Part shown: piece after piece, positions 45,481-46,331 of the stretch
Layout of the letters: every line of letters starts with the position of its first letter
How positions within the stretch are numbered: the first letter of the stretch is position 1
Assembly: GCA_040386195.1 (NCBI GenBank)
Contig: JAZKFV010000005.1
Location: 40,961 to 104,960, forward strand
Source of the DNA: Pseudomonadota bacterium
GTDB lineage: Bacteria > Pseudomonadota > Alphaproteobacteria > Rickettsiales > UBA1997
Direction of reading: 5' to 3'
Length of the DNA stretch: 64,000 bases
Notes under the pieces: model-generated
What the model was told of the DNA's origin: nothing
Database searches by the model: none
What the model saw: the letters and a program-made list of their open reading frames with translations, nothing else
Position numbers and translations under genes: made by a program

Positions 45481-46331
45481 TATAAACTTTTTTTCTTGGG
45501 TAATTTAGCAAAAATTGGATCGGTGATTTTGGTAGAAATTAAAGTTGCCAGCCAAACGATGAAATAAAGTGGGAATGGAAAGGCGATACGGGATTTATTT
45601 TTAGCTAAAGATTTTTTGATAATCTGCGCCGCCTTATCAGCGCTGATTAAAAACGGCATTGGAAAATTATTCACAGCGGTCATCGGCGTTTTGATATAAC
45701 CCGGACAAACCACATTCACCGCAATTCCCAGCGGCGCCAGCGAGCCGCGTAATGCTTCACCATAAACCCGCACGCAAGCTTTGCTGGCAGAATATGCTGG
45801 CGATGAAGGTAAGCCGCGAAAGCCTGCCAATGAAGAGATAATAGCAATCTGCCCTTTCAATGGCTTGTCATCCTGAGTGCAGCGAAGGATCTCATGAGAC
45901 GAGTTCGGTTTTGGTTCATGACGCGCTGCAAGAGATCCTTCGCTGCGCTCAGGATGACAGTTTAGCATCAACGCAATCGCTGGATTAATCGTATTTAAAA
46001 CCCCATCAATATTAGTTGTAAAAATTTCCTTAATTTGATTTTCACTTTCTGATCCCGAAGAAGTTCCAGCTGAAATTCCGGCATTGGCAATTACCAAATC
46101 TAAATGAAATTCTTGCCCAAGCTCGATAATCCAGTCTTTAACCGCCTTAGCGTCTTTAATATCAATAATTTTGCTGATAACTTTTGCCTGTTTATTTTGG
46201 CAAATTTGAGTGATGTGATTTAATTTTTCCTGACTACGCCCAGTGAGAAAAAGTGTGTTTCCTGCTTGGGAATAAACTTCCGCCAAAGCCCAACCAAGTC
46301 CACTAGTGGCGCCGGTGATTAAAATATTCAT
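45480..46331 (-). CDS. Short-chain dehydrogenase/reductase carrying an in-frame family A repeat insertion
   Basis: Has ILITGATSGLG, NAG and YSASKACV (YxxxK) motifs. I prefer the internal Met at 46331, because the track's extra 12 codons are read from repeat B3. The frame stays open through element A5. Confidence 0.8.
   Translation of the reverse strand: MNILITGATSGLGWALAEVYSQAGNTLFLTGRSQEKLNHITQICQNKQAKVISKIIDIKDAKAVKDWIIELGQEFHLDLVIANAGISAGTSSGSESENQIKEIFTTNIDGVLNTINPAIALMLNCHPERSEGSLAARHEPKPNSSHEILRCTQDDKPLKGQIAIISSLAGFRGLPSSPAYSASKACVRVYGEALRGSLAPLGIAVNVVCPGYIKTPMTAVNNFPMPFLISADKAAQIIKKSLAKNKSRIAFPFPLYFIVWLATLISTKITDPIFAKLPKKKSL
45866..45959. repeat. Family A palindromic element, copy A5 (inside the SDR CDS)
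   Basis: Sequence is TGTCATCCTGAGTGCAGCGAAGGATCTCATGAGACGAG…GAGATCCTTCGCTGCGCTCAGGATGACA. It is translated as CHPERSEGSLAARHEPKPNSSHEILRCTQDD. Confidence 0.9.

Follow-up and report, generated by a model that had tools for sequence, protein, structure and literature searches.

Can a hairpin-forming repeat lie inside an enzyme gene, be read by the ribosome and leave the enzyme at work? The question is raised by a 64,000-nucleotide stretch of contig JAZKFV010000005.1 (assembly GCA_040386195.1, positions 40,961 to 104,960; hereafter the window) from a bacterium placed in the Rickettsiales, in which a minus-strand gene for a classical short-chain dehydrogenase/reductase (SDR; 45480..46331, 283 amino acids, best NCBIfam model PRK07024) contains a 94-nucleotide palindrome at 45866..45959. 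We put a probability of about 0.85 on the reading that this palindrome is a tolerated, nearly neutral passenger, namely a head-to-head dimer of repetitive extragenic palindromic (REP) units that inserted into a permissive loop of a live SDR and is read in frame.

The element, whose letters run TGTCATCCTGAGTGCAGCGAAGGATCTCATG...CAAGAGATCCTTCGCTGCGCTCAGGATGACA, belongs to a repeat family that we call family A. It has arms of 31 nucleotides that are 94% complementary, with 32 nucleotides in between. Read as a dimer whose two TGTC-tagged REP units stand head to head, on the gene's minus strand, it consists of arm 1 (45866..45892, plus strand, TGTC-ATCCT-GA-GT-GCA-GC-GA-AGGAT-CT), which is a small stem-loop by itself, a spacer (45893..45932), and arm 2 (45933..45959, minus strand), the reverse complement of which is TGTC-ATCCT-GA-GC-GCA-GC-GA-AGGAT-CT. 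The RNA of the gene strand folds at -58.8 kcal/mol, compared to -26.9 +/- 3.6 for dinucleotide shuffles, of which none in 200 reached this energy (z = -8.96). Arms, fold and repeat count thus agree with the complete family A palindrome that a preliminary description of the locus had placed here. The open reading frame (ORF) that holds the gene (45480..46367, minus strand) stays open across the element, reading ...NPAIALMLN-CHPERSEGSLAARHEPKPNSSHEILRCTQDD-KPLKGQIAIISSLAG..., with the element starting in codon phase 0, occupying nucleotides 376-469 of the gene, and encoding CHPERSEGSLAARHEPKPNSSHEILRCTQDD plus one further nucleotide.

The host protein carries the classical-SDR hallmarks TGATSGLG, NAG and SS...YSASK, and it matches Pfam adh_short at an E value of 5.5e-38 and PRK07024 at 3e-58. 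Both profile alignments, and that to PDB chain 3rku, are interrupted at the insert, between residues 117-134 on one side and 159-160 on the other. The Pfam match covers residues 4-134 and resumes past the insert, positions 132-254 of PRK07024 correspond to residues 160-282, and residues 2-117 and 159-220 align with 35-157 and 167-228 of 3rku, which has 9 residues at the insert site compared to 41 in the query. The insert peptide, CHPERSEGS...EILRCTQDD, is placed between helix alphaE and strand beta5. It had been claimed that the SDR frame runs through the palindrome with NPAIALML ahead of it and TGATSGLG, NAG and YSASK intact, and that the insertion lies between NPAIALML and the GQIAIISSLAG strand; the open frame bears out the first claim and the break shared by the three alignments the second.

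Homologues obtained by a protein-collection search (in which P0001 is the window protein itself) showed that the segment is a genuine insertion into the SDR, because close orthologues without it have a linker of just 9 residues. Four proteins (P0002-P0005, 77-89% identity in the alignment) carry the same insert in the same place, with the peptides NYHPERSEGSREKRCESKPNFSHEILRCAQDD; NCHPERSEGSRETGCEIKPNSSNEILHFTQDN; SCHPERSEGPLATCHKTKQNSSHKILRYTQNG; and NCHPEKNKESLAVRCCKKPNVANEVLSFAQND. Empty-site orthologues of 256-260 amino acids, among them P0008, P0009, P0012, P0013, P0016 and P0017, have the 9-residue linker (e.g., EKQKIKITH), and more distant relatives have a linker of 4 residues. Several further orthologues, P0006, P0010, P0011, P0024, P0026 and P0030 among them, have long linkers of an unexplained kind. 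The close homologues include MAGs (metagenome-assembled genomes) labelled Rickettsiaceae or Rickettsiales, which at 73-75% identity are the nearest named ones and lie outside the genus Rickettsia. Scanning metagenomes for the SDR/element junction pattern ATGYTNAAYTRTCATCCTGAG gave 31 loci, of which not one was an SDR, and added no carriers; a search of representative proteins with the 35-amino-acid insert gave 20 matches at E<=0.001, many of them multi-arm, and was underpowered, so that we left it out of the counts.

We then compared DNA from carriers (L001, L002/L003 and L004), from an empty site (L005), and from a locus with a different insert (L006). The SDR gene lies between rho (46417..47934) and a major facilitator superfamily (MFS) transporter gene (44350..45480) in the window, and this order recurs in all orthologous loci as far as the contigs reach. 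The junction is identical in the window, L001, L002 and L004 (ATG YTN AAY | TGTCA...TGACA | A), and the carriers share the orientation of the element and a recognisably homologous spacer. These observations bear on the idea that metagenomic binning produced the palindrome artificially, through misassembly or a chimera, which has in its favour that the source is a MAG and that the repeat occurs in very many organisms. Since the same junction appears in independent assemblies from NCBI, JGI and Logan, and the insert has diverged in step with its host gene, we give this idea practically no credence.

The preliminary description had the element add about 31 residues. That figure is right for what the element encodes; the gene itself, at 852 nucleotides compared to 771 in the empty-site orthologue L005, is longer by 81 nucleotides or 27 codons. 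Because the insertion is 94 nucleotides long and the gene has gained only 81, a net 13 nucleotides of ancestral linker are gone; in L001 and L002 the net loss is 16. The course of events that we propose is as follows. A non-autonomous palindromic repeat made of two 27-nucleotide TGTC-tagged REP units, placed head to head around a spacer of some 40 nucleotides, would have entered the DNA coding for the alphaE-beta5 connection of a classical SDR. Loss of a net 13-16 nucleotides of the 9-codon linker would have restored the reading frame, and a ribosome passing through the open frame would add 31 hydrophilic residues. With the connection presumably on the Rossmann sheet's N-terminal edge, off the cofactor/substrate cleft, the enzyme would still work and the allele could persist. 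Thereafter the protein sequence of the insert would drift almost freely, its frame staying open and its hairpin being kept or decayed according to lineage. That the enzyme stays active, and in which order insertion and deletion came about, are things that we infer.

Whether the SDR is alive at all was assessed from substitution rates, estimated pairwise by the Nei-Gojobori method among four carriers including the window and, for the insert, over 31 codons. The sequences flanking the insert gave ratios of nonsynonymous to synonymous substitution (dN/dS) of 0.08-0.12 at synonymous divergences (dS) of 0.69-1.35, with the same values against L005 and L006, and their identity was lower at third positions (53-69%) than overall (76-85%). 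Such strong purifying selection over a long divergence implies that the gene is not a pseudogene. An SDR killed by the insertion, its open frame an accident, might be suspected from the length of the element, which is not a multiple of three, and from the fact that GC-rich palindromes in an AT-rich genome seldom hold stops, which makes an open frame weak evidence by itself. In the arm sequence, TGT CAT CCT GAG reads on as CHPERSEGS, GTC ATC CTG AGC reads on as VILSAAKDL, and only TCA TCC TGA stops; in the other arm, too, two of the three frames are open and the third ends after two residues. However, all four carriers have flanks at this low dN/dS without stops or frameshifts, catalytic motifs and synteny are intact, and the inserts differ in length by whole codons (35 compared to 36 linker residues). 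We regard the pseudogene explanation as essentially refuted by this selection analysis.

The insert itself looks different. Its dN/dS among carriers was 0.38-1.77, and its identity at third positions (74-87%) compared to overall (68-83%) shows no codon periodicity, from which we conclude that there is little amino acid constraint on it. Even so, no stop or frameshift has arisen in it across five lineages, and it is almost certainly translated, judging by the frame. This also argues against a scenario in which the insert is present in DNA but not in protein, whether removed like an intron or skipped by translational bypassing of the kind seen in T4 gene 60 and at mitochondrial 'byp' elements. 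In its favour, the element is a stable hairpin within an ORF, and yeast mitochondria do contain mobile GC-rich hairpin inserts that are bypassed. In the SDR gene, however, the codons flanking the element are not matched as take-off and landing sites, there is no stop just inside the element, and the only Rfam match is a spurious sub-threshold microRNA hairpin. A frame that five lineages have kept open, with the insert diverged by 17-32% in its nucleotides, would moreover be needless if the segment were skipped, and we consider bypassing or removal very improbable. The Rfam match in question, to the animal microRNA hairpin mir-1890 (reporting threshold E<=10), scored 33 bits compared to a gathering score of 76 and was rejected as a generic match to a long hairpin; at the gathering threshold, Rfam recognised only 16S rRNA in the window.

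How an enzyme might accommodate the added residues was explored with an AlphaFold (AF2) model, built on an alignment of 31 sequences and reaching a mean predicted local distance difference test score (pLDDT) of 74.5. In this structure prediction, which had been proposed earlier, the insert lies between helix 98-125 and strand 161-167, with pLDDT block means of 54-61 across residues 131-160, two short predicted helices, and an N-terminal core (residues 1-80) mostly above 90. Compared with classical SDR structures in Foldseek, the model gave target-normalised template-modelling (TM) scores of 0.62-0.77, the top matches listed all being SDRs at a probability of 1.00. In the Rossmann-fold topology of SDRs, the alpha-to-beta connections lie at the edge of the sheet opposite the cofactor/substrate cleft. 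We infer that the insert would form an exposed surface appendage away from the cleft, with which its peptide, rich in charged and polar residues, is consistent.

The same loop has received another repeat. In L006 (protein P0007) the linker is interrupted, a few codons away from the site in the carriers, by a different palindrome, CGTC-ATCCTGGC-GAAA-GCCGGGAT...ATCCCGGC-TTTC-GCCGGGAT-GACG, which encodes RHPGESRDL...EIPAFAGMT within its gene (L006:87-950). Its sister P0008 (bootstrap 94%) has an empty site, and this is an independent and seemingly recent insertion into the alphaE-beta5 loop. By geometry and peptide the L006 insert matches a dimer of the CGTC-1 type described below. Because a second type of REP has been inserted there, the alphaE-beta5 loop is permissive.

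Several observations weigh against a simple passenger. The first is the nature of the source, which is a MAG, so that translation and enzyme activity can only be presumed, and the structure model is of only moderate confidence at the mean pLDDT and alignment depth given above. A second concerns divergence: the insert differs in total by 17-32% among carriers, which is less than the 31-47% seen at third positions of the flanks, and this lower divergence implies that the insert is either not purely neutral or younger than the genes that hold it. The third is the distribution of carriers. In a neighbour-joining tree of 250 flank residues with 300 bootstraps, the bipartition uniting the five carriers was recovered in 0 of 300 replicates. 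Carrier P0003 grouped with the empty-site P0009 (65%), the nearest neighbour of the window protein was P0006, and at the DNA level carrier L002 was closer to the empty L005 (dS 0.73) than to the other carriers (0.97-1.35). One insertion followed by simple vertical inheritance does not explain this distribution.

Nor did we adopt an independent insertion in each carrier lineage as the main explanation, as all carriers share the derived M-L-N|TGTCA junction and all have lost the ancestral EKQ... linker, both of which favour a single origin of the insert. On the four DNA sequences, three candidate explanations come into question: the insert allele may have spread among related lineages by recombination, the insert may be constrained at the nucleotide level while the tree is star-like and poorly resolved, or other copies in the genome may have converted it.

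Alternatively, the insert might have been co-opted, either as an RNA or DNA hairpin that tunes expression of the SDR and the downstream MFS gene (by being cut by RNase III, by making ribosomes pause, or by binding gyrase or another protein), or as a new surface appendage. The arms are near-perfect in the window and in L001 although the flanks stand at a dS of about 0.7, the stem extension of L001 shows a single double change that is compensatory (CTCGTGAG/CTCACGAG compared to CTCATGAG in the family), and both the lower divergence and the presence of the allele in gene lineages whose closest relatives lie elsewhere would fit. Yet the palindrome is retained in some lineages and decaying in others: hairpin energies are about -57 kcal/mol in the window and -66 in L001, compared to -41 in L002 and -22 in L004. 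The dN/dS of the insert and its lack of codon periodicity also speak against co-option, many close orthologues do without any insert, the DNA sequences compared number four, and templated palindrome repair or conversion from other copies could keep arms matched without selection. We therefore hold co-option to be unlikely, and retain the passenger reading.

The SDR insert is one of six family A copies in the window. A search for the 26-nucleotide arm motif with up to 3 mismatches found 8 occurrences making up 4 full elements, where shuffles led us to expect 0.00, and an inverted-repeat scan added two further copies with 1-2 extra bases in the central loop of the arm. The five extragenic copies lie at 8927..9019 (93 nucleotides, with a GNNA-type arm loop; intergenic, 13 nucleotides 3' of the stop of the minus-strand ORF 9032..9619), 18010..18104 (95 nucleotides; entered by the plus-strand ORF 17556..18020, which stops at the copy's TGA), 19364..19449 (86 nucleotides, with perfectly complementary arms of 36 nucleotides; flanked by convergent ORFs whose stops are both 2-3 nucleotides away), 30206..30301 (96 nucleotides; the minus-strand ORF 30291..30887 ends at its TGA), and 52796..52879 (84 nucleotides; intergenic, 21 nucleotides 3' of the stop of the minus-strand ORF 52900..54411). 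All five thus have a stop codon at a distance of 0-21 nucleotides, a position typical of REPs; the neighbouring ORFs are unidirectional at four of them and convergent at the fifth, and only the SDR copy (1 of 6) is intragenic. The six copies measure 84-96 nucleotides and have a G+C content of 46-55% in a window of 35.8%; all are head-to-head dimers, and 12 of 12 arms start with TGTC. No direct repeat of 2 nucleotides or more that could be a target-site duplication flanks any of the six.

Two spacer subfamilies can be told apart, a long one (8927, 18010, 30206 and the SDR copy at 45866) and a short one (19364 and 52796), with that of 30206..30301 resembling the SDR copy's spacer in the opposite orientation. 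The orthologous inserts in L001, L002 and L004 have also kept the spacer of the SDR element. Because spacer subfamilies are common to several copies, what is copied is the whole doublet and not the arm alone. As a side observation, the genes at 17556..18020 (plus strand) and 30291..30887 (minus strand) have their last codons and stop supplied by a family A copy (TCA TCC TGA; window positions 18010-18020 and 30291-30301).

To describe the repeat more generally, we examined 317 arms from other loci, where the consensus is the stem-loop TGTC-ATCCT-GA-GC-GNA-GC-GA-AGGAT-CT. Within an arm, the two sides of the outer 5-bp stem covary: next to ATCCT/AGGAT (231 arms) we found ATTCT/AGAAT (27), ATGCT/AGCAT (8) and GTCCT/AGGAC (6), as well as the rarer ATTCC/GGAAT (4), ATTTC/GAAAT (2) and ATGTT/AACAT (2), together with about 20 single-mismatch variants. 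The primary arm matches were fixed at ATCCT/AGGAT, and the stem variants thus come from partner or neighbouring arms. Covariation of this kind points to a hairpin within the arm, since pairing of one arm with the other would not by itself give the pattern. The sole freely variable position is the apex base N (C 112, A 85, G 34, T 33). With nearest-neighbour DNA parameters, the fold predicted for a single-stranded DNA arm has the same shape at -2.7 kcal/mol, which is no better than shuffles, and the hairpin is thus supported by covariation and not by its energy; d(GCGNAGC), for its part, is an unusually stable DNA mini-hairpin.

Among known repeats, family A most invites comparison with the CGTC-tagged REPs, in families CGTC-1 to CGTC-4, of Di Nocera, De Gregorio and Rocco (2013; PMC3733652). 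Their units have an unpaired CGTC tag (with TGTC and CCTC variants), a stem of 8-9 positions starting with A-T and T-A, a loop of 4-5 nucleotides and, in most members, a short unpaired tail of consensus CCA (PMC3733652). They occur mostly as head-to-head dimers with spacers of 20-100 bp that can fold into one large hairpin, mostly no more than about 20 nucleotides away from where unidirectional or convergent genes have their 3' ends, without an associated transposase, and they were reported from 5 phyla (PMC3733652). In-frame intragenic singles and dimers of 9-43 amino acids (20-43 for dimers) were tabulated from Rickettsia conorii, Sphingomonas wittichii, Rhodopseudomonas palustris and others, one example from S. 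wittichii being VIPAKAGISLPFDEQSGERSGKKREIPAFAGMT (PMC3733652).

Family A resembles these repeats in its TGTC tag, with CGTC variants in other loci and in L006, in its head-to-head arms with spacers mostly of 11-98 nucleotides (one of 155), and in the position of its extragenic window copies close to stops. It differs in that its nine stem positions, which likewise start with AT, include two tandem G.A/A.G mismatches (5 bp, 2 mismatches and 2 bp), in its 3-nucleotide GNA loop (5 nucleotides if the last pair is left open), in its CTC tail (CT/CC in other phyla) in place of CCA, and in the occurrence of its arm in at least 12 phyla compared to the 5 published. The A-type peptides CHPERSEGS, VILSAAKDL, ILRCAQDD and RSFAALRMT are absent from the published table of intragenic REPs (PMC3733652). 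Family A fits into the CGTC-tagged REP superfamily, in which we place it by the features described. A full-text literature search with the arm sequence and the peptides returned nothing relevant.

The Rickettsia palindromic elements (RPEs) are a precedent for the event as such, and are reportedly the subject of work by Ogata et al. in 2000 and 2002. RPE-1 to RPE-8/10 are in-frame insertions that occur in housekeeping genes of unrelated kinds, at places which the protein fold can accommodate (PMC10969869). The preliminary description likened the SDR insert to them while giving it different termini. The likeness stands and is greater than was described there, with an in-frame palindrome at a permissive site of an apparently working gene; the difference in termini does not, because GTCAT.../...ATGAC is shared with RPE-4 and RPE-6, of which R. 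conorii RPE-6 has been assigned to CGTC-1 and RPE-4 to CGTC-4 (PMC3733652). Like the RPEs, family A is a palindromic repeat richer in GC than its AT-rich genome, lives in a Rickettsiales-like host, and is kept in orthologues and then decays. Unlike them, it is short (84-96 nucleotides compared to about 150 for RPE-1), its host is an uncultured bacterium outside the genus Rickettsia, and one of six window copies is intragenic. Searches of the insert peptides against Pfam and NCBIfam gave 0 matches at E<=10, and the insert would not belong to the RPE sequence families as far as these searches reach, the presence of RPE models in the two libraries being unconfirmed. The type of event is already known, from Rickettsia RPEs (PMC10969869) and from intragenic CGTC- and GTAG-tagged REPs (PMC3733652), and the SDR case is a further example.

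Two other kinds of mobile repeat share some of these features. REPINs, pairs of REPs that are said, in work attributed to Bertels and Rainey in 2011, to be mobilised by REP-associated tyrosine transposases (RAYTs), are built from GTAG-tagged, lineage-specific REPs that flank a single-copy RAYT gene encoding a Y1/HUH transposase. Family A has in common with them two inverted REP units around a spacer, one long hairpin, occurrence as singlets too, and spacer subfamilies within a genome, and differs in its TGTC tag and in an arm that is near-invariant across phyla. A tblastn search with IS200-type TnpA sequences found no IS200/RAYT-like gene in the window, although a distant RAYT or one encoded elsewhere could escape it; around some 230 other copies (1.78 Mb) the same search gave one match, in L157. 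[quoted passage not shown]

The arm is widespread. Its exact pattern, TCATCCTGAGNNNAGCGAAGGATC (21 fixed bases), occurred in 74 IMG/VR contig stretches and in at least 120 stretches of GTDB species-representative genomes. Among the matches listed in GTDB are Patescibacteria, Acidobacteriota, Chloroflexota, Omnitrophota, Bacillota, Planctomycetota, Gemmatimonadota, Nitrospirota, Bacteroidota, Verrucomicrobiota, Synergistota, Bdellovibrionota, and Alpha-, Beta- and Gammaproteobacteria; the arm is thus present in at least 12 bacterial phyla, and the cultured isolates Hymenobacter glaciei and Acidicapsa dinghuensis are included. Across loci L007-L200, the ends TGTCA...TGACA are sharp and the arms near-identical, with unrelated spacers of 11-155 nucleotides. 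Adjacent arm pairs in 195 loci were head to head (+/-) in 78 cases, tail to tail (-/+) in 14 and in tandem in 19, and many arms are solitary or paired with a REP-type arm of a different kind. Arms are also read in frame elsewhere: single arms (ILRFAQDD, ILRSAQDD or MLRCAQHD) in a PfkB/pyridoxal-kinase-like protein of L192 (about 5284-5307) and in phage terminase-like proteins of L010 (12625-12648) and L062 (1522-1545), and two or three arms in a large phage protein of L018 (2958-3206) and L036 (1010-1144).

These distributions suggest a tentative reading, which we think doubtful, that the arm is a single near-invariant hairpin module found across at least 12 phyla and viral contigs with no transposase apparent, spread horizontally or recognised by some shared, undescribed machinery. 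As part of this reading, the SDR allele may move by recombination or be held by nucleotide-level selection, since its carriers are scattered over the tree of the flanks, without forming a clade, and third positions of the flanks have diverged more than the insert has.

In L157 (Acidobacteriota), a family A dimer (3852-3961) and another arm (5276-5291) enclose an IS200/IS605-type tnpA (4593-5057), towards which their TGTC tags point. This sole case in 1.78 Mb may be due to chance and is too little for an association.

The SDR locus offers a natural experiment in insertion tolerance, in which the same 31-residue, repeat-coded segment sits in a constrained enzyme across lineages at a dS of about 1. 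It extends protein-coding palindromes beyond the genus Rickettsia, to uncultured bacteria that are Rickettsiales-like, and links them, on the features described, to the CGTC-tagged REP superfamily. It also carries a warning for annotation, as peptides of the CHPERSEGS/ILRCAQDD type in proteins, including 'hypothetical proteins', are translated REP arms. Finally, one REP arm that is nearly unchanged across many phyla is not predicted by the view that REPs are inherited vertically.

The window holds a second repeat family, consisting of inverted, hairpin-forming arrays of the tandem heptamer (AGTCGTA/GTCGTAA)n at 46340-46414, 48086-48171 and 56080-56196. One array directly separates the SDR start from the rho stop; another lies just 3' of the 16S rRNA gene. 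The latter gene is complete (48236-49732, minus strand) and stands alone, with no 23S, 5S or tRNA genes detected within the window. With no 23S or 5S beside the 16S gene in 64 kb, the rRNA genes are unlinked, as they are in Rickettsiales and some other reduced genomes. The rho gene next to the SDR (46417-47934, minus strand) has an N-terminal extension in front of the Rho_N domain region; it is about 90 residues long and abounds in Asn, Ser and Glu.

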